Virus record (IMG/VR): IMGVR_UViG_3300031658_000009 | Span: 1 to 58,012 of that record | Direction: 5' to 3' (one strand) | Length of the DNA: 58,012 nt | Source of the DNA: a virus | Taxonomy: Duplodnaviria; Caudoviricetes | Part shown: positions 1 to 26,249 of the stretch, in pieces | How the letters are laid out: each line of letters begins with the position of its first letter | Numbering within the stretch: the first letter of the stretch is position 1 | The notes under the pieces: generated by a model | Databases searched by the model: none | Told to the model about the DNA's origin: nothing | What the model saw: only the letters and a program-made list of their open reading frames with translations | Made by a program: the position numbers and the translations under genes

Positions 1-3000
1 CCGTACCAGCGGGACTACCACTACCGTTAGTTCCGGTTGTACCGTTTACAATGTTTACAGTATCAAATACCAAAAGCCTGTTCGTGTTACAATTTGAAAC
101 ATCGTTTACCTGCCAAATATCTGGAGTATAAATTGTTCCGTTAGACCCAGTTGCTCCTTTGGCTCCAGCGGCTCCAGCAGTACCTGTTGCTCCTTTAGCA
201 CCATTGGTACCATTAGCCCCTGTTGCTCCTTTGGCTCCAGCGGCTCCATTGGCACCGGTAGCACCCTTAGCACCCTTAGTACCTGCTCCTGTTGCTCCTT
301 TAGCACCAGAAGATCCGTTGATGTTTCCTGTTTGATTCCATTGACTTCCATCCCATTCGTATACGTCACCGTTATCAGTGTCAAGATATTGATCTCTTAG
401 GTTTACACCAGCCGCTGTTGGGGCTCCACTGTCAGAAGTCCATTGTGAACCCTGAACCCCTTTAGCGCCAGTTGCTCCTTTGGCTCCAGCAGTTCCTTTA
501 GTCGCTGTTCCGGTTGCTCCTTTGGCTCCAGCGGCTCCAGCGGCTCCTTTAACTGAAGCGCCGGTTGCTCCTTTGGCTCCAGCGGCTCCAGCGGCTCCTT
601 TCGTTGCGGTACCTGTTGCTCCCTTGTCTCCGGTTGCGCCCTTGGTTGCAGCACCAGTGGCGCCTTTTTGACCTTTAGTCGCTGTTCCGGTTGCTCCTTT
701 GGCTCCAGCGGCTCCAGCGGCTCCTTTAACTGAAGCGCCAGTTGCCCCCTTGTCTCCAGTTGCTCCTTTAGTAGCGGCACCTGTCGCTCCTTTTTGACCT
801 TTAGTTGCTGTTCCAGTCGCTCCCTTGTCTCCGGTTGCTCCTTTTGTAGCAGTACCGGTTGCTCCCTTGGCTCCCGCTGCTCCTTTAGTAGCGGCACCTG
901 TCGCTCCTTTAGCACCATCGTTACCAGCAGTACCTGTTGCTCCTTTTGTAGCAGCGCCGGTTGCTCCCTTGTCTCCAGTTGCCCCCTTAGTAGCGGCACC
1001 AGTTGCTCCCTTGGTTCCCGCTGTTCCTTTAGTTGCGGCACCAGTCGCTCCCTTATCTCCAGTCGCTCCTTTCGTTGCTGCTCCTGTTGCTCCTTTATTA
1101 CCCGTAGGGCCTTCTATACTACCTGTTGAGTTCCATTGACTTCCATCCCATTGGTACACCTCGCCATCATCTGTATCTAAGTATAGATCATCAGTGTTTG
1201 AGGGTGCAGTCGTTGGGGCACCAGCGGCTGATTGCCATTGTGATCCCTCAACACCCTTGGATCCTGTGGCTCCTTTAGTACCTGCTTCACCTTTCTGGCC
1301 TTTGGTTGCTGTTCCAGTTGCTCCTTTGGCTCCAGCAGTTCCTTTAGTAGCAGCACCTGTTGCTCCTTTATCACCAGTCGCTCCTTTAGTCGCTGTTCCA
1401 GTCGCACCCTTATCACCAGTCGCTCCTTTAGTCGCTGCGCCAGTTGCCCCCTTGTCTCCGGTTGCTCCTTTCGTCGCTGTTCCAGTTGCTCCCTTATCAC
1501 CAGTTGCCCCTTTAGTAGCAGCACCAGTTGCTCCCTTCGCACCCGTAGGGCCTTCTATACTACCTGTTGAGTTCCATTGACTTCCATCCCACTGATAGAC
1601 CTCACCGTCGTCAGTGTCAAGATATTGATCATCAGTATTTGACGGTGCAGTCGTTGGGGCACCAGCGGCTGATTGCCATTGTGATCCCTCTACTCCTTTA
1701 GATCCGGTTGCTCCCTTGGCTCCCGCTGTTCCTTTAGTTGCAGTACCAGTTGCGCCTTTATCTCCAGTCGCTCCTTTCGTTGCAGCGCCTGTGGCACCTT
1801 TAGTACCATCAACACCTTTTAGTCCCTTATCACCCTTAACAGCGGTTCCTGTAGCACCTTTGGCTCCGTCTATACCTTTATCTCCAGTAGCACCCTTAAC
1901 AGATGCTCCTGTAGCGCCTTTATCTCCAGTTGCCCCTTTGGTTGCAGCACCAGTAGCGCCTTTATCGCCAGTTGCTCCTTTAGTAGCGGTACCAGTTGCG
2001 CCTTTAGTTCCGTCTATACCTTTATCTCCGGTAGCGCCTTTGGTTCCATCTATTCCTTTTTGACCGGTCTGTCCTTTGCTACCACCTGGTCCTTGAGGTC
2101 CCTGTATACTACCTTGTGCATTCCATTGACTTCCGTCCCATTGGTATACCTCACCGTCATCGGTGTCTAAATACTGATCATCTACGTTAGAAGGAGCAGT
2201 CGTTGGGGCACCAGCGGCTGATTGCCATTGTGATCCCTCAACCCCTTTCTGGCCCTTGTCGCCTGTCGCGCCCTTAGTACCGTCTACACCCTTCTGACCC
2301 TTATCTCCAGCAGTACCTTTATCTCCCGCTGTTCCTTTTGTGCCATCAATACCCTTCTGTCCGGTTTGTCCTTTATCTCCCGCTGTTCCTTTAGTTGCGG
2401 TACCGGTCGCTCCCTTGGCACCAGCAGTTCCCTTAGATCCCTCTATACTTCCTTGAGCAGCCCATGCACTGCCATTCCAAGAATATACTTCACCGTCGTC
2501 GGTGTCTAGGTACTGATCATTTGTGTTCGATGGAGCAGTAGTCGGAACACCAGCGGCTGATTGCCATTGTGAGCCTTCGACGCCTTTTTGGCCCTTGTCT
2601 CCTGTGGCACCTTTAGTACCATCAACACCTTTTAGTCCCTTTTCTCCTGTTGCTCCTTTTGTGCCATCTATTCCTTTCTGGCCTTTATCACCAGCAGTAC
2701 CTTTATCTCCAGCCGTTCCTTTTGTGCCATCAACACCTTTTAGTCCTTTATCACCTGTTGCTCCTTTTGTGCCATCAAGACCTTTCTGGCCTTTATCACC
2801 AGTCTGTCCTTTGTCTCCAGCCGTTCCTTTTGTAGCAGTACCTGTGGCGCCCTTGTCTCCGGTCTGACCCTTTGAACCTCCTGGTCCCTCTATACTTCCT
2901 TGAGCGTTCCATGTTGTTCCATTCCATGAGTAAACCTCTCCATCATCCGTATTTAAATACTGATCGCGTATGTTTACACCATTGGTTGTTGGTACTCCAC

Positions 3001-6000
3001 TAGAAGAAGTCCATTGTGAGCCTTGAACACCCTTAGCGCCAGTTGCTCCCTTAGTACCGTCAAGACCTTTCTGGCCTTTATCACCAGTTGCACCTTTTGT
3101 TCCGTCAAGACCTTTTTGGCCCTTGTCTCCCGCTGTTCCTTTTGTTCCGTCAAGACCTTTTTGGCCCTTGTCCCCGGCGGCACCCTTAGTAGCAGTACCC
3201 GTCGCTCCTTTAGGTCCTTGAATACTACCTGTGGAAGCCCACGCTGTTCCGTTCCATTGATAGACCTCACCGTCGTCGGTATCAAGATATTGGTCATCCA
3301 CGTTAGATGGGGCAGCAGTCGGAACACCAGCAGCAGAGGTCCATTGTGATCCCTCAACTCCTTTAGCACCTGTGGCACCTTTGGTTCCATCTATACCTTT
3401 TTGTCCCTTATCTCCAGTTGTTCCCTTAGTTCCGTCAAGACCTTTCTGTCCCTTATCACCAGCCGTTCCTTTGTCTCCAGTAGCACCTTTGGTTCCATCT
3501 ATACCTTTATCTCCGGTTGCGCCTTTTCCACCTCCTGGTCCTTGAGGTCCTTCAATGCTTCCCTGAGCAGTCCACGCAGTCCCATTCCAAGAATAGACTT
3601 CTCCATCATCAGTATCAAGATATTGATCTCCAGAATTCACCCCATTAGTTGTAGGTGCTCCATTGGAAGAGGTCCATTGCGAACCTTGCACTCCTTTAGC
3701 GCCTGTTTGACCCTTATCGCCAGTAGCACCCTTAGTACCGTCTATTCCTTTTTGACCTTTGTCTCCGTCTATACCCTTATCTCCGGTTTGACCCTTGGTG
3801 CCATCTATTCCTTTCTGACCAGTCTCTCCTTTCTGTCCTTTAACAGCGGCTCCAGTTGCTCCCTTCGCACCCGTAGGGCCTTCTATACTTCCTTGAGCAG
3901 CCCATGCACTGCCGTTCCATTGATAAACTTCTCCGTCGTCAGTATCCAGGTACTGATCGCCTATGTTTACGCCATTAGTTGTTGGTACTCCATTGGAAGA
4001 GGTCCACTGAGAACCTTGAACACCCTTAGCACCTGTGGCGCCCTTGTCTCCATCGACTCCTTTTTGACCCTTGTCACCATCTATTCCTTTTTGACCTTTG
4101 TCACCGGTGGTGCCTTTATCCCCTGTTGCTCCTTTTGTGCCATCTATTCCTTTCTGACCAGTCTCTCCTTTCTGACCAGTTGCACCTTTGTTACCAGTCG
4201 GCCCTTCGATACTACCTTTGGATACCCACGCTGTTCCGTTCCACTGATAAACTTCTCCATCGTCGGTGTCTAAATATTGATCATCAACATTAGATGGGGC
4301 ACCAGTAGGGGTGCCGGGAGCAGACTGCCATTGTGAGCCTTCGACTCCTTTAGTACCAGTAGCACCTTTGTCTCCGGTTTGTCCCTTGACTCCATCAATA
4401 CCTTTTTCGCCCTTATCACCGGTGGCACCTTTATCACCAGCAGTACCCTTAGTACCATCTATTCCTTTTTGACCGGTCTGTCCTTTATCACCAGTTGCAC
4501 CTTTTCCACCTCCTGGTCCTTGAGGTCCTTCTATACTACCTGTTGAGTTCCACGCTGTTCCGTTCCACTGATAGACCTCACCGTCGTCAGTATCAAGATA
4601 TTGATCGTCTGTATTAGAGGGCGCAGTAGTCGGGACACCAGCGGCTGATTGCCATTGCGATCCCTCGACCCCTTTAGCACCCGCTTCGCCTTTCTGGCCC
4701 TTATCTCCAGCCGTACCCTTGGTACCATCAACGCCTTTTTGGCCTTTGTCTCCAGCAGTACCTTTCCCTCCAGTAGGTCCTTCTATACTTCCCTGGGCAA
4801 CCCAAGCGTTTGATTTGAATTCATAAACCTCTCCATCATCTGTATCAAGATATTGGTCTCCTTCATTATTACCAGTAGATGTTGGTGCTCCAGGAGCAGA
4901 AGTCCATTCAGATCCTCTGACACCATTTATTCCTTTGTCACCGGTAGCGCCCTTAAGACCATCTATTCCTTTCTGACCCTTGTCTCCAGTCTGACCCTTG
5001 TCTCCAGTCTGTCCTTTATCTCCAGCGGTACCTTTTGTACCGTCTATACCCTTCTCTCCAGTAGCACCTTTTACAGAAGCACCAGCAGGTCCTTCTATAT
5101 TACCTGTAGATACCCACGCTGTTCCGTTCCATTGGTACACCTCGCCGTCATCGGTGTCTAAGTATTGGTCATCTGTATTAGAAGGAGCAGTCGTTGGGAC
5201 ACCAGCAGCAGACTGCCACTGCGATCCCTCCACTCCTTTAGCGCCAGTAGCACCTTTAGTACCATCAACGCCTTTATCACCAGTAGCACCTTTAGTACCA
5301 TCTATCCCTTTTTGACCTTTAGTACCGTCTATCCCTTTTTGACCTTTGTCACCAGTCTGCCCTTTGTCACCTGAGGCTCCTTTGTCTCCAGCGGTACCTT
5401 TTACAGAAGCGCCAGCAGGTCCCTCTATACTGCCTTGTGCATTCCACGCTGTTCCATCCCAAGAGTATATTTCACCGTCATCGGTATCCAGGTACTGATC
5501 GTCTATGTTTACGCCATTAGTTGTTGGTGCTCCATTGGAAGAGGTCCACTGAGAACCCTCAACTCCTTTCGCTCCAGTAGCACCTTTCTCTCCTTTAGCA
5601 CCTTCATTTCCAGTAGCACCTTTTGTACCATCTATTCCCTTATCACCAGCAGTACCTTTTCCTCCTGTAGGGCCTTCTATACTACCTTGTGCATTCCATT
5701 GACTTCCATCCCACTGGTAAACTTCACCATCATCAGTGTCTAGATATTGATCATGTTCATTGACCCCATTAGTTGTTGGAGAGCCTGGGGCTGAGGTCCA
5801 TTGAGAACCCTCTACTCCCTTGTCTCCAGTGGCTCCCTTAGTGCCATCTATTCCTTTATCTCCAGTAGCACCTTTAGTACCGTCGACTCCCTTGTCTCCA
5901 GTAGCACCTTTAGTACCGTCAGTCCCCTTATCTCCAGTGGTACCTTTAATACCAGTATCACCCTTGGATCCGGTTGCACCCTTAGTACCATCTATTCCTT

Positions 6001-18179: not shown

Positions 18180-18938
18180 TTGAGTGTTTTATCCTATTGA
18201 CTTTGTCCTTTTTTTACTGTAACTTTGGCCTGAGCAGGAAGAAGGTACTTATGAGCATTAACATTTGATTCTTTAGCATCGCGACAAGAAGAATCACAAG
18301 TGGTTATCGAAACACTTGATTCAACTAAACTTACTTCCCTCAATCGACAGCCTCCGTATCAGGGCACCCCTTTTGTAAAAAATTTCACAAACGAGTATTC
18401 TATTTACAGAGGTAATAGTTACCCATCGTTACGCGATAGGTAGCGTATTTACAGCGTGTTCTAGCGCATGCATTTTGGTTGACAAAGCATTCTGTTGACG
18501 CGCTTTTTCTAGTGCGTTACATCCAAGAAAATCATTGAGTAATATTCAGGACGGGGATTATGTATATATGTACACGCCCGCACAAGGAAACCGAAACGGA
18601 TCTCCAGACCCCACGGGGGCATTAACGCGCGCTAATTCTTCCAGAATTCTGGCGTTTTACGTCGTCGTCACGGGCTCTCCCTTCGGGAGGGTCTTGGTCA
18701 GCGGTACCCCACAGCCAAACCAGTTCAGCATCCCCCTTGAAAAGGGGGCGGGAACAATCACCCCCCGAAACCTAGGCACATCATACAGGCCATGTGTTAA
18801 CCCTTACCAAGGGTGGCGCATACATACAGGCCGTGGTTATCATCGTGCACTCGTTGCTACGTAGTAGCCGATTCTATTTCCGAGGCCAATCAGAGGAGCC
18901 TTGCACGTACTTCGTGCGCATAATGTACGCTCCAAGTA

Positions 18939-18984
18939 TTAACTTTTCATTAACACTTTTCCGGGAAATGTCACCATAGATTTG
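18939..18984 (+). promoter_or_regulatory. Early promoter cassette, copy 1
   Basis: TTAAC-TTTTCA-TTAAC ... GGAAATGTCACCATAGATTTG (contains TAnnTTTG). Confidence 0.75.
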
Positions 18985-19008
18985 CATCGAACCAAAACGA
19001 AAACGACG

Positions 19009-19389
19009 ATGAGTCAACACAACACAACCCCCGTGAAACTGCTGAAAGCAGTGCAAAACAAGATCGATAAGGCTTTAGCCTTGATTGAAATGGCTAAGGA
19101 GTACGATGTCGATACACCTTCAACGTATGATGGGAGCACGATGGAATCGTACATAGATATCACAGATATCAGGGTAAAGGGCAAATATGTTTATATCGAA
19201 GAAGCAGAGCATGGTATCCATGCATATGGCTTTGCCAAGCGCTACAATACGAATAAGGTAGGTGATTGGGATGCAGATGGATTGGCAGATTGTAAGTATC
19301 ATTTGAACCTTATATGTAGAACATATAGAAAAGCGATCAAGGCCAACTTTAAGGCACGGAATTACTACCCTACTAATGTAACACTTTAA
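19009..19389 (+). CDS. Early hypothetical protein
   Basis: ATG 19009 follows an A-rich leader downstream of the promoter cassette. Confidence 0.7.
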   Translation: MSQHNTTPVKLLKAVQNKIDKALALIEMAKEYDVDTPSTYDGSTMESYIDITDIRVKGKYVYIEEAEHGIHAYGFAKRYNTNKVGDWDADGLADCKYHLNLICRTYRKAIKANFKARNYYPTNVTL

Positions 19390-19977: not shown

Positions 19978-20029
19978 GGGTATAGCATGGAGCGCCGAAA
20001 GGTGAAGGATCGTTACCTTCTATATCCCC
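19978..20029 (+). ncRNA. tRNA-like element A (acceptor stem + T-arm, no anticodon arm)
   Basis: GGGTATA/TATATCC 7-bp stem, CGCC-GAAA-GGTG hairpin, GAAGG-ATCGTTA-CCTTC 5-bp arm with 7-nt loop. Confidence 0.55.
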
Positions 20030-20048
20030 TAATTTAAAACCAGTTTCT

Positions 20049-20423: not shown

Positions 20424-20469
20424 TTAACATTTCATTAACGCAATACTTGGAAATATCGCCATTTATTTG
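20424..20469 (+). promoter_or_regulatory. Early promoter cassette, copy 2
   Basis: TTAAC-ATTTCA-TTAAC ... GGAAATATCGCCATTTATTTG; same spacing as copy 1. Confidence 0.75.
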
Positions 20470-20502
20470 CACCAACAATATGAATTAATAAACGAATAGA
20501 TT

Positions 20503-20760
20503 ATGAATGCAAGACAATTGATTGATGGGCTTACCCATATAGCAAAGGACAATGGAGTTAATTTAGAAAACTTACAAGTAAACTATAGGTATGATTTTGA
20601 TTCAGATGTAGTTGAAAATGCTAGTTTTTTATTTTCTATTGGATTATCAGGAAAAACGGACTTACATAAAGTAGACTTTGTCTTTAAAGATTTGTTTGAT
20701 GAAGTGAATAATAACAGGCTAGAGAGCGTAGTCTTAACAACCCTATCCGATGAAAACTAA
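20503..20760 (+). CDS. Early hypothetical protein
   Basis: 85 aa downstream of the promoter cassette. Confidence 0.65.
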   Translation: MNARQLIDGLTHIAKDNGVNLENLQVNYRYDFDSDVVENASFLFSIGLSGKTDLHKVDFVFKDLFDEVNNNRLESVVLTTLSDEN

Positions 20761-21139
20761 TTTCCTAAGCCTACACGAGATAGGCATGACCAAGGCAATG
20801 ATCAGAAAACAGATCGACAGATTCGTTGATGAGATCAGCGTGGATGACGAGAGGATGGAGCAGGTCATGGATGCGTTAACGCTGTTAAACCAGCACGAAG
20901 ACAAGTACACGGCAACGGAGGCGGAAAACCTGCTCTCATGGTACATAACGTCACACGATGAATGTGTTGATGAAAACCAAGAGGGTTTTACCGGGCTTGA
21001 AGTTTACAGAGTAAAGAAGAAGATCGAAGGATACGATAAGGCCATGGATGCTATAGAGTGCATTCGAGGCGAGTGGATGAGCGGAGTTCATGGGTATTCA
21101 CTGGAGCATGATACGTATGAATCTTCAGTGCGAATTTAA
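20750..21139 (+). CDS. Acidic early hypothetical protein
   Basis: 129 aa, overlapping the upstream stop. Confidence 0.7.
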   Translation: MKTNFLSLHEIGMTKAMIRKQIDRFVDEISVDDERMEQVMDALTLLNQHEDKYTATEAENLLSWYITSHDECVDENQEGFTGLEVYRVKKKIEGYDKAMDAIECIRGEWMSGVHGYSLEHDTYESSVRI

Positions 21140-21150
21140 ACGATAATTAT

Positions 21151-21315
21151 ATGGAACCGATACAGATTTGGAATGACTTTTTTAAGTGCCATCAAGATGA
21201 AAGGGCACATAACATGTTTGGTGTTTACTACTTCGAATGCAATGAGCACGAGCAGTTTATGGTACTGCATTCGGTAGATAACATGTATAGGCATTATATT
21301 GAGACGCAACATTAA
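21151..21315 (+). CDS. Small early protein (54 aa, not in track)
   Basis: MEPIQIWNDFFKCHQDERAH...ETQH*. Confidence 0.55.
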   Translation: MEPIQIWNDFFKCHQDERAHNMFGVYYFECNEHEQFMVLHSVDNMYRHYIETQH

Positions 21316-21337
21316 GATCATGTAAGGGCTATGTCCT

Positions 21338-21414
21338 AGGGCACCGTAACAAGGCGAAAGGTTTTGGTTTGGTTTACGCTGTTGTTCTTATAGATTCACG
21401 ATCTATGGTGCCCT
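21338..21414 (+). ncRNA. tRNA-like element B
   Basis: AGGGCACC/GGTGCCCT closing stem; AACAA-GGCG/CGCT-g-TTGTT stem whose loop contains TTGGTTTGGTT; ATAGA-TTCACGA-TCTAT T-arm. Confidence 0.65.
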
Positions 21415-21440
21415 CTAAAGAGAAAAGTTTTTTATTCGCT

Positions 21441-21486
21441 TTAACATTTCATTAACGCATTATCTAAAATTGTCGCCGTTTGTTTG
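21441..21486 (+). promoter_or_regulatory. Early promoter cassette, copy 3
   Basis: TTAAC-ATTTCA-TTAACGCA ... TGTCGCCGTTTGTTTG; same spacing as copies 1 and 2. Confidence 0.7.
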
Positions 21487-21505
21487 TGGCATAAATTATC
21501 GCTCT

Positions 21506-22213
21506 ATGAAAAATCGGATTGTTTGGAAAGAAGGTGAAAACATCTTCGTAGTACGTAAGGGGAAGACATCTAATGATAAGATATCAGATGGTAAGCCCTT
21601 AGTACAGACGTACACATTTAGCGAAAAGCAATGGGTATTGGCGAGTACATCGAAAGGCTTTGGCATGAAGAAGTTTTTCGCATTAGATGGCAGTAACTGC
21701 TTAGATTGTCCGTACTCGGGAAACCAAGGTAAAGGCGGATGCTATACCCATAAGTTTAACCAGTACGTCGGCTTTTTGTCCATGCTCAGAAGTATAAGCA
21801 TAGAAGACCTTACACCTTTGGATCGTGACAAACAACATGAGATCATAAAAATGTCATTCAATACATACGTAAGGTTTGGTACATATGGTGAACCATCGCT
21901 GTTGCCTATTTCATTGATCAACGGCATATCATATGTTGCAGATGGATGGACTGGTTATACTCACCAATGGGAGAAAAAATGGGCTAATGAATATAACAAA
22001 TGGTTTATGGCATCTACTCATGATGCGAAGGAACAACGCAAAGCCCGTACGATTGGCTTTAGAAGTTTTATTGCTACAACAATAGGAACGGAGAAGGCCG
22101 TAAGTTGCCCTGCATCTAAAGAGATGGACTACAAAAGTAACTGCGCCAAATGTGGGCTATGTAGTGGCATGTTAGGCAAGGGAACGAAGGACATTAAGAT
22201 TCTAGAACACTAA
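21506..22213 (+). CDS. Cys-rich phage protein (Gp88-like, possible Fe-S/radical-SAM-like fold)
   Basis: CLDCPY..GGCY, VRFGTYGEP, GYTHQW, CPA..CAKCGLC. Confidence 0.6.
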   Translation: MKNRIVWKEGENIFVVRKGKTSNDKISDGKPLVQTYTFSEKQWVLASTSKGFGMKKFFALDGSNCLDCPYSGNQGKGGCYTHKFNQYVGFLSMLRSISIEDLTPLDRDKQHEIIKMSFNTYVRFGTYGEPSLLPISLINGISYVADGWTGYTHQWEKKWANEYNKWFMASTHDAKEQRKARTIGFRSFIATTIGTEKAVSCPASKEMDYKSNCAKCGLCSGMLGKGTKDIKILEH

Positions 22214-22256
22214 TTTAAACTAACATGGATGGTATTAACACTAAAATTTATAATTT

Positions 22257-22403
22257 ATGCTAAATCAAAACGACCCGTCATTTATGGCAGAGCAAAATGA
22301 ATTCTATTCCGACAAGTGCGGGTATTGTATGGAGTACGTTGGTCATGACGACGAATGTACGAACACGTTCTGCGATGGATATGATATAGAAACAAATATT
22401 TAA
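22257..22403 (+). CDS. Small zinc-finger-like protein (48 aa, not in track)
   Basis: MLNQNDPSF..CGYC..ECTNTFC; stop overlaps the next ATG. Confidence 0.55.
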   Translation: MLNQNDPSFMAEQNEFYSDKCGYCMEYVGHDDECTNTFCDGYDIETNI

Positions 22404-22666
22404 TGCTTATGGATACGAAAACTTATTGTGTTGCACACACATCAAACATGCAAGAAGACAATTACTTGTACGCTTTGGAATCAATGGAAGAAGCGCAGAA
22501 GGTGTTTAAAGGGGTGGTAACCCACATGAAGGAATACGCTACGGAAACATTAGAGGAGAGCGAAAAATCGTTTTATTGTGAAACGGACGAAACATACGAA
22601 CGATGTACAATATTCGTAATCGAGAAGCGAAGCCGAGCGAACGGCGCAATGGGAATATCTATGTAG
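22403..22666 (+). CDS. Hypothetical protein
   Basis: 87 aa ORF in the packed early region. Confidence 0.65.
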   Translation: MLMDTKTYCVAHTSNMQEDNYLYALESMEEAQKVFKGVVTHMKEYATETLEESEKSFYCETDETYERCTIFVIEKRSRANGAMGISM

Positions 22667-22682
22667 GTACTCCTATGTACTT

Positions 22683-22753
22683 GGGGCATCATGTCAAGAC
22701 AATTGGTTTGGTTCATGTTGTTGACTCAGTAGGTTCGTGGCCTACGATGCCCC
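22683..22753 (+). ncRNA. tRNA-like element C
   Basis: GGGGCATC/GATGCCCC closing stem; GTCAA-GACA/TGTT-g-TTGAC stem with loop ATTGGTTTGGTTCA; GTAGG-TTCGTGG-CCTAC T-arm. Confidence 0.7.
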
Positions 22754-22765
22754 CTAATTTAATTA

Positions 22766-23035
22766 ATGCTTATGGAGGATACAAAGGTGTACGTTAAAAG
22801 CGTAAGGTATTTTGAAACACGGAGAGGTTTAGGATACCAATGTAAAACCAATCACGGATTTGAGATTTGGAATGATGGAAGCGGGGGAAGTACCTACATA
22901 GATGGTGCGGGGGTAATGCCTAACAGCATTGTATACGAGATGTTACGAAAGCAATTCCCCGATGCGGACTTACATAGTTACGATATTGAAGAAGCCTTAG
23001 AAGGTTTAATTAATGAATATGAATCAGTTAAATAA
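22766..23035 (+). CDS. Hypothetical protein
   Basis: 89 aa, IWNDGSGGSTY motif. Confidence 0.7.
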   Translation: MLMEDTKVYVKSVRYFETRRGLGYQCKTNHGFEIWNDGSGGSTYIDGAGVMPNSIVYEMLRKQFPDADLHSYDIEEALEGLINEYESVK

Positions 23036-23222
23036 AATGGATGACATTATGATGGACGAATTTGTTACCTTTTGCAAGGAGAGTTGTGAACAACACCCAC
23101 ATTTTAGCGAAACGATCATGGACTATTTCGATTTAGCCATGGATGAGATGGAGCAAGGAGGATCTCAACAACACGAGATCGAACTTGCCGTTAATGATAT
23201 ACAAAGTGTATGTGGATTATGA
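23013..23222 (+). CDS. Small acidic protein
   Basis: Probable start at ATG 23037; D/E-rich. Confidence 0.6.
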   Translation: MNMNQLNKMDDIMMDEFVTFCKESCEQHPHFSETIMDYFDLAMDEMEQGGSQQHEIELAVNDIQSVCGL

Positions 23223-23428
23223 ACGAGCAATTAAGATTGATTAAAGAGATCACCTACAACGTACAGAATGCTTTAGACACTGCGGAATTGTTACACCATA
23301 GTTTTGAGGTACACAAACTGCGTATTGCTATAGAGAAGTTAGCGCTGTTAGAAGTAGATGTGAAGACTGATGTAACTATTGTTGAATTATGCATGAGGGA
23401 TTTATCCTATGCAGGAATAGAAAAATAA
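23210..23428 (+). CDS. Hypothetical protein
   Basis: 72 aa, coupled to neighbours. Confidence 0.6.
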   Translation: MWIMNEQLRLIKEITYNVQNALDTAELLHHSFEVHKLRIAIEKLALLEVDVKTDVTIVELCMRDLSYAGIEK

Positions 23429-23571
23429 TAACTATGATTAATAAAGACTTTGAACCCAAACGTAAACCTTCTATGCTTGTGGAGGCTGTAGCGTGGTTCT
23501 TTTTATACGCACCAATATTCACTTTCTTCTATTGCATTGTGCAGGGGATTAAATACTTGACTGGATCATGA
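23389..23571 (+). CDS. Small membrane protein
   Basis: One hydrophobic segment, AVAWFFLYAPIFTFFYCIV; probable start 23434. Confidence 0.55.
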   Translation: MHEGFILCRNRKIITMINKDFEPKRKPSMLVEAVAWFFLYAPIFTFFYCIVQGIKYLTGS

Positions 23572-25868: not shown

Positions 25869-26165
25869 ATGGATCAAGAAAAGAAGGACATCTACATTGG
25901 ATTTGTAGGTGACAAGAAAGAGTACGACAGCGGTGTCGTGAAGTATGACATCTCTTTTAAAGAGGCTCAACTAGAAGAGTTGAAGAAGTATGTTACCCAA
26001 TCGGGTAATGTAAACATGGACTTTGTTATTAAGTCGGATGGCAATGCATTCTTATCGACGTTCAACCCAAGAGCGCCGAAGAATCAGATGTATGCTAAGA
26101 ACGAGCAGAACACAACAGTTGCGGCAGCAGATGCGGCCAAGGCAGGTGCTGATCTACCGTTTTAA
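25869..26165 (+). CDS. Probable single-stranded DNA-binding protein
   Basis: 98 aa ending in DLPF (SSB C-terminal tail), next to the recombination genes. Confidence 0.65.
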   Translation: MDQEKKDIYIGFVGDKKEYDSGVVKYDISFKEAQLEELKKYVTQSGNVNMDFVIKSDGNAFLSTFNPRAPKNQMYAKNEQNTTVAAADAAKAGADLPF

Positions 26166-26173
26166 TTAATTAA

Positions 26174-26232
26174 GAAAGTGGGGTGTCCTTTGATGGCTTT
26201 GAGCGCTGTTAATTAAAGGCGCCCCCTTTTTT
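26174..26232 (+). terminator. Long hairpin with U-tract after SSB
   Basis: GGGGTGTCCTTTGAT...ATTAAAGGCGCCCC followed by TTTTTT. Confidence 0.55.
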
Positions 26233-26249
26233 AAACTAACACTATTAAT

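Follow-up and report, generated by a model that had tools for sequence, protein, structure and literature searches.

The window analyzed here is a complete IMG/VR virus record of 58,012 bp whose early region carries a family of three tRNA-like RNA elements, E1, E2 and E3. Portal, large terminase and virion proteins are encoded on the minus strand; on the plus strand, small genes of the early and replication classes are grouped together at ~17.7-32 kb. The terminase shares 40-47% identity with those of Flavobacterium, Maribacter, Cellulophaga and Bacteroides (crAss-like) phages, so the host is most likely a member of the Flavobacteriia/Bacteroidota. A nucleotide search of positions 20500-23500 against GenBank phages returned no match. 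In the crAss-like phage phi14:2, early intergenic regions give rise to abundant, stable non-coding RNAs of unknown function (10.1101/2020.03.07.982082), which makes early non-coding RNAs plausible in this phage group.

E1 (21339-21418) and E2 (22684-22757) lie on the plus strand and were delineated by fold, covariance models and covariation. The acceptor stem of E1 pairs 21339-21345 with 21407-21413, and that of E2 pairs 22684-22690 with 22746-22752. Two unpaired nucleotides lead into a central stem of 5 + 4 bp with a bulged G on its 3' side (E1, 21348-21356 with 21377-21386, 9 bp, bulged G at 21381; E2, 22693-22701 with 22716-22725, bulged G at 22720). This stem is capped by a U/G loop of 20 nt in E1 (21357-21376) and 14 nt in E2 (22702-22715). 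Three unpaired bases then separate the central stem from a T arm with a 5-bp stem and a 7-nt TTC loop, which is stacked on the closing stem (E1, 21390-21406, T loop TTCACGA; E2, 22729-22745, T loop TTCGTGG). Each element ends in a tail made up of N73 (21414 in E1, 22753 in E2) and CTAA (21415-21418 and 22754-22757, respectively). Both U/G loops contain TTGGTTTGGTT, an exact 11-mer that occurs twice in the window and solely there. With up to one mismatch it has five matches in the window against 1.3 expected, a number reached by 3 of 100 shuffles. The initial annotation had described this architecture from the letters alone, and its stems, bulged G, loop motif, TTC-loop arm and CTAA are all present on the plus strand. 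The absence of a D arm and of a canonical anticodon arm, also part of that description, agrees with the two-nucleotide junction between acceptor and central stem and with the loop lengths.

The sequence differences between E1 and E2 had been put down to covariation, and the pairs bear this out. In a plain MAFFT alignment of the two, 8 of 22 pairs are changed on both sides and none is broken. The same pattern extends to related phages. In a five-member alignment every one of the 109 cells is paired, and both sides have changed in 16 of the 22 pairs; in a nine-member alignment drawn from four phage records, 96.1% of 181 cells are paired, and 18 of the 22 pairs carry such compensatory changes. 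The five- and nine-member alignments were fitted to the model, which favors structure. None of 500 shuffles reaches the nine-member values, and slid partners pair at 38-51%. Compensatory change maintains all three helices, and the D-arm-less plan, the bulged G and the tail recur across paralogues and orthologues. G.U pairs are found on the sense (plus) strand, with GU in five of seven cases at one pair, and the plus strand of the elements folds better than the minus strand. Folding z-scores taken alone are modest (-1.64 for E1 and -2.79 for E2). The RNA structure of the elements is real and covarying. The closing stem had been given as 8 bp, and E1 does form an eighth pair (21338:21414), but this pair is present in only five of nine members; the family-wide closing stem is therefore 7 bp followed by a discriminator-like base.

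A covariance model of E1 and E2 recovers the two in a search of the window at 106.7 and 97.6 bits. The next match, at 15.8 bits, is a short third member, E3 (19978-20032, plus strand), which adds to the two-element family first described, both of whose members stand. Its acceptor stem pairs 19978-19984 with 20021-20027, its T arm spans 20004-20020, and its C-CTAA tail consists of N73 at 20028 and CTAA at 20029-20032. The middle of E3 is a small GAAA-capped hairpin (~19993-20004) with a 4-nt loop, and there is no U/G loop.

Relatives were collected as 80 viral loci, fetched with the 235-aa protein encoded between E1 and E2 as anchor. With model R2, 3 of 50 related records contain copies. Model R3, built from nine members, scores E3 at 29.1 bits (E 5.6e-6) and hits 6 of 41 records, namely the window (3), G001 (2), G002 (1), G019 (3), G051 (2) and G014, the last being a weak match to a hairpin only. 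Among 40 more distant records seven have hits, which comprise three ordinary tRNAs and four odd tRNA-like elements. Seven further hits were found in 73 metagenome loci, none of them called by ARAGORN. Among them, one is nearly identical to E1, another is an E2-type copy whose loop resembles that of E1, and several are short acceptor/T-arm elements ending in N-CTAA. Unannotated members are also present in GenBank record MW202828 and in Maribacter phage Panino, an isolate whose tRNA-like element is situated in its early region (PP540027, ~4941-5036, plus strand). The shorter members have a 7-9 nt loop, a tiny insert or no insert, and keep the same acceptor, T arm and tail. The family is absent from Rfam, and literature searches on tRNA-like phage RNAs yielded no description of it.

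Of 110 loci from a pattern scan for the E1 tail, the G002 locus alone contains an element. A T arm + N11 + CTAA pattern gave at least 130 matches in at least 126 loci, and 93 of the matches listed overlap ARAGORN tRNAs. Among the matches listed, 37 have no such overlap, and of these only L325, a G019b-type copy, clearly belongs to the family; the others listed look like intron-bearing or odd tRNAs. Separately, L077 and L079 (G076, G078) carry at 2240-2333 a tRNA-like element with a 7-bp acceptor, a canonical T arm, an encoded CCA and two odd central hairpins, which ARAGORN does not call.

All members are intergenic, on the coding strand and co-oriented with the flanking genes, and they are tRNA-like, non-cloverleaf folds inside predicted mRNAs. 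E2 and E3 are 12-17 nt past a stop codon and 9-16 nt ahead of a start codon, the next start after E2 being 9 nt downstream. E1 is directly followed by a promoter-like module (21441-21486, plus strand) that consists of TTAAC-N6-TTAAC and then TTTGTTTG, and whose best sigma-70-like site is at 21441-21470. Copies with the same plan are found on the plus strand at 18939-18984 and 20424-20469, and homologous modules occur in G001, G002 and G019; in the three window copies a TAnnTTTG-like element stands ~20-25 nt past TTAAC-N6-TTAAC. The positional counterpart of E1 in G002 is likewise succeeded by a conserved stretch and then the module. Because the module lies directly downstream, E1 appears to be at the end of one transcription unit. 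The copy G019b is located ~35 nt downstream of its own promoter-like module, as a free-standing RNA gene would be.

Around E2, a start context TTTAATGCTTATGGA is found at 22397-22411 and 22760-22774. It also occurs in G001, G002 and G019 and precedes several small genes. The two small proteins flanking E2 are unrelated and not paralogues, and the TTTAATGCTTATGGA context may be a shared junction for module exchange. No defence-related or RNA-binding genes were recognized beside the elements.

The elements do not qualify as intrinsic terminators: no terminator-like site (a G+C-rich hairpin with a direct T run) is listed at E1-E3, and the T run after E1 starts 13 nt past the stem. Elsewhere in the window, a long G+C-rich hairpin followed by TTTTTT (26180-26235, plus strand) comes after a gene whose end is at 26165 and, unlike E1-E3, resembles a standard intrinsic terminator. 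A crAss-type virion polymerase is also not shown in the window, since the 2102-aa protein has no sequence match in PDB and the DFDxD motif is absent from it and from two other large window proteins.

As in a canonical tRNA, the 7-bp acceptor of E1-E3 stacks on a T arm made of a 5-bp stem and a 7-nt loop; the rest of the cloverleaf, namely the D arm and the anticodon arm with its 7-nt loop, is lacking. Central loops across the family range from 4 to ~25 nt. ARAGORN calls no tRNA and no tmRNA in the window, and Rfam returns nothing there at gathering threshold and nothing at E1 or E2 with E<=10, as the initial annotation had expected; E3 is not called by ARAGORN or the Rfam tRNA model either. 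Four annotated tRNAs of phage Panino (Ala, Phe, Trp and Asn) reach 16-25 bits with R3, scores comparable to those of E3 and G001b. Relatives carry canonical GGTTCGAGTCC-type T arms, and the T loops of G002 and G019b read TTCGAGT. The G002 copy also matches the Rfam tmRNA family (RF00023) end-to-end via its tRNA-like domain, at 16.6 bits and E 0.004 against a gathering score of 47. We reject identity with tmRNA on the grounds that this sub-threshold match is confined to the G002 copy, that ARAGORN calls no tmRNA and that the elements are only 50-90 nt long.

The tail offers a second link to tRNA genes. None of the 19 annotated tRNA genes of Panino encodes CCA, and most have C as the first trailer base. 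N73-CTAA follows 4 of the 19 (Ala, Lys, Val and Trp) and CTAT follows three, the trailers being of C-N-A type overall. An N-CTAA tail follows all 11 close-clade members of the element family. Because CCA-less tRNA genes carry the same N73-CTAA, the CTAA of the elements appears to be an ordinary trailer of tRNA genes in this phage group, which argues that the elements would undergo the same 3' maturation, losing the trailer and gaining CCA. Among the control genomes, Bacteroides thetaiotaomicron has an RNase Z family match. Related phages carry many genuine tRNA genes. The family also shows that programs for tRNA detection overlook one class of tRNA-derived phage genes. Panino itself has an unannotated tRNA at 67841-67925 of PP540027 (minus strand) that looks type II and has a GTA anticodon loop.

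The U/G loop is present in 7 of the 11 close members and absent from the other four, so the scaffold appears to be the common denominator and the loop a conserved cargo. E1 and its G002 counterpart are identical at 50 of 94 positions, the same as their flanks, and both retain TTTTGGTTTGGT. The E2 orthologues differ by one extra UGGUUU unit, the units varying from two to three. In G014 the same loop is displayed on a plain hairpin, without the scaffold. TTGGTTT(T)GGTT furthermore appears in hairpin/pseudoknot-like loops before terminator-like hairpins in the relatives L007 (~2758), L008 (~2048) and L015 (~2765), which are without the tRNA-like scaffold.

A candidate pairing partner of the U/G loops is AACCAAAAC (18990-18998, plus strand), a leader just downstream of the first promoter-like module and 10 nt before the ATG at 19009. 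It is the best of 132 window start regions in a duplex search with the E1 loop, and homologous leaders rank second of 178 in G001 and fourth of 258 in G019. The pairing energies of -16.6 to -18.5 kcal/mol (E1, G001 and G019c) are reached by 0.1-0.5% of random windows. Per-window frequencies range from 0.0013 to 0.078 overall, and the value for E1, 0.003, is not significant over 132 tests. Start codons are not enriched in 7-mers complementary to the loop. The leader named in the antisense claim of the initial annotation comes out on top of the ranking, and the match loses significance after correction for multiple tests; the antisense idea is an unproven lead. Relatives without the elements have ACAAACAAAA-type leaders that lack CC, which fits co-occurrence, but within a single clade. 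To our knowledge, the host phylum Bacteroidota is without Shine-Dalgarno-led initiation and without Hfq.

We propose that E1-E3 are tRNA-derived mimics cut from early transcripts by tRNA-processing enzymes, with the U/G loop as effector in the E1/E2 subfamily, a reading to which we give about an even chance. On this view, early transcripts of a Flavobacteriia-type phage would contain the elements in sense orientation, each reduced to the acceptor/T-arm half of a tRNA, with a variable hairpin in place of the D and anticodon arms. Host RNase P could cleave at the 5' end of the acceptor stem. The CUAA trailer would be taken off by RNase Z or by 3' trimming, as in the CCA-less tRNA genes of related phages, and CCA could then be added to the trimmed element. 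These steps would release a stable 50-80 nt RNA, and the same cuts would split the polycistronic mRNA beside neighboring genes. In E1 and E2 the scaffold may display the conserved (U)UGGUUU-repeat loop as an effector, the most concrete candidate target being the 5' leader with AACCAAAAC on the first early mRNA of the phage itself. Recruitment of RNase P and RNase Z, put forward in the initial annotation, is consistent with the R3 scores of true tRNAs, the shared trailer and the canonical T arms of relatives. We infer transcription, cleavage, CCA addition and any target from these indirect lines.

Among known systems, the closest parallel comes from plant mitochondria. There, t-elements are non-cloverleaf tRNA mimics with an acceptor stem and a GGTTCRANYCC-type T arm inside mRNAs. 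According to PMC1920247, RNase P and RNase Z cleave at their borders, which thereby also become mRNA ends, and an element released in this way can persist as a stable RNA and acquire non-encoded C or CA. E1-E3 similarly keep the acceptor stem and T arm outside a cloverleaf. They differ in belonging to another domain of life, in having no sequence in common and in that their processing is predicted, and the conserved U/G-rich display loop sets the phage subfamily apart. By analogy, the reading we favor is that of a phage equivalent of t-elements, half a tRNA in shape, on which RNase P and the enzymes of 3' tRNA maturation would act. The tRNA-like domain of tmRNA also combines acceptor and T arm with a long helix from the core and no D or anticodon arm, but the phage elements contain no tag reading frame and no pseudoknots, and its alanine identity pair G3.U70 is present in E3 and absent from E1 and E2, which have G3-C70. 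The CCA-less tRNA genes of Panino share the acceptor/T-arm geometry, the R3 cross-score and the N73-CTAA trailer with the elements, unlike which they possess a D arm and a 7-nt anticodon loop.

Phage precedents for the regulatory part of the proposal are the C4 antisense RNA of P1/P7 and the CI RNA of P4, whose mature RNA loops pair with the phage's own leader and block expression. MascRNA from MALAT1 and the T4 species 1 and 2 RNAs are tRNA-like small RNAs freed by tRNA-processing enzymes; the former is eukaryotic and the latter sit in a tRNA gene cluster, unlike the elements described here. The C4 precursor is listed as an RNase P substrate in PMC4919922, which lists the MALAT1 case as well. 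C4 and CI are, like the proposed products of the elements, phage RNAs matured by RNase P. They differ in host phylum and fold, and target pairing is unproven for the elements, which match no Rfam family, C4 included if it is among them.

Several points weigh against the proposal. The T loops of E1 and E2 depart from TTCRANY at the fifth position and are without the canonical A58-type position, so recognition by tRNA enzymes is not assured. The distribution is narrow, being confined to one clade of related marine phage contigs (5 of 41 records with R3, apart from the weak G014 match), so that most relatives can do without the element. The bare structural descriptor lacks specificity, giving 15 hits in 80 loci versus 2-11 in shuffles. 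Pairing between loop and leader is weak in G002 (-9.6 kcal/mol, reached by 0.078 of random windows), and the pairing is post hoc; its three good cases share ancestry and the lineages are not independent. A more specific version strikes us as improbable. In it, the tRNA scaffold serves antisense riboregulators matured by RNase P/Z; by base-pairing of their UUGGUU loop to AACCAAAAC at the start of the first early mRNA they would stop immediate-early translation, while the cuts punctuate early transcripts.

The elements could instead be pure punctuation or stability signals of mRNA, in which the fold directs RNase P/Z cuts or blocks exonucleases and the loop is inactive in trans. Members with GAAA (E3), with a 7-9 nt loop or without an insert keep the acceptor, T arm and tail, E2 and E3 are packed tightly between stop and start codons, and plant mitochondrial t-elements provide a precedent (PMC1920247). 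We consider this unlikely, given that the U/G-repeat loop is retained while the stems of E1 and G002 diverge, that the loop recurs in most close members and on a scaffold-free hairpin, and that G019b is placed like a free-standing RNA gene.

Still less probable, in our estimate, is a decoy or sponge for a host factor that recognizes tRNA, such as a defence nuclease, a modification enzyme or SmpB, or for uncharged tRNA 3' ends via UGG. Decoys for tRNA-targeting defence nucleases had also been suggested in the initial annotation. Pairing of UGG with CCA ends occurs in T-box RNAs and RNase P. Acceptor/T-arm mimicry is evident, the plan resembles the tRNA-like domain of tmRNA, and the varying number of UGGUUU units between orthologues is as expected of multivalent binding sites. 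A decoy would sit less easily with the lack of a recognized defence-related or RNA-binding gene adjoining the elements and of an anticodon-loop mimic of the type that anticodon nucleases recognize, and nothing links the loop to any protein.

It is very unlikely that the elements are decaying tRNA genes that no longer have a function: E1 and E2 do have degenerate T-loop positions, the elements escape ARAGORN and Rfam, and related phages have many real tRNA genes, but compensatory change preserves the three helices, the loop motif is conserved, and paralogues and orthologues repeat the D-arm-less plan with its bulged G and tail. We give least credence to action at the DNA level (a cruciform or hairpin as promoter, origin or recombination site) and to unusual decoding tRNAs, for even though phi14:2 early genes are transcribed by a virion RNA polymerase with no promoter motif found in that report (10.1101/2020.03.07.982082) and the CTAATTTAATT-ATGCTTATGG junction recurs ahead of unrelated small genes, the G.U pairs and better folding of the sense strand, the T-arm sequence and trailer, which are tRNA features, and the lack of DFDxD in the large window proteins argue against the former, and central loops of such varied length exclude a common anticodon loop.

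Signals of tRNA shape that direct RNase P/Z to cut mRNA are textbook knowledge in organelles and hardly documented in phages, and riboregulation in Bacteroidota and their phages is poorly known. If processed as proposed, the elements would show how abundant marine phages shape their early transcripts and would offer a natural tRNA scaffold for small-RNA expression in Flavobacteriia.

Two other regions of the window deserve mention. The plus strand at 18560-18930 is G+C-rich and contains many hairpins, for example CTCCCTTCGGGAG and CCCCCTTGAAAAGGGGG, with a fold z-score of -2.0. The open reading frame (ORF) at 18568-18864 has no Pfam or PHROG match and Rfam finds nothing in the region, which may specify a sizeable non-coding RNA, by analogy with the abundant early intergenic RNAs of phi14:2. 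On the minus strand, the stretch at ~1300-3500 has few ORFs that start with ATG and encodes collagen-like Gly-X-Y repeats, for example KGIDGTKGATGDKG; the product is probably a fibre protein that has repeats or starts at a codon other than ATG.
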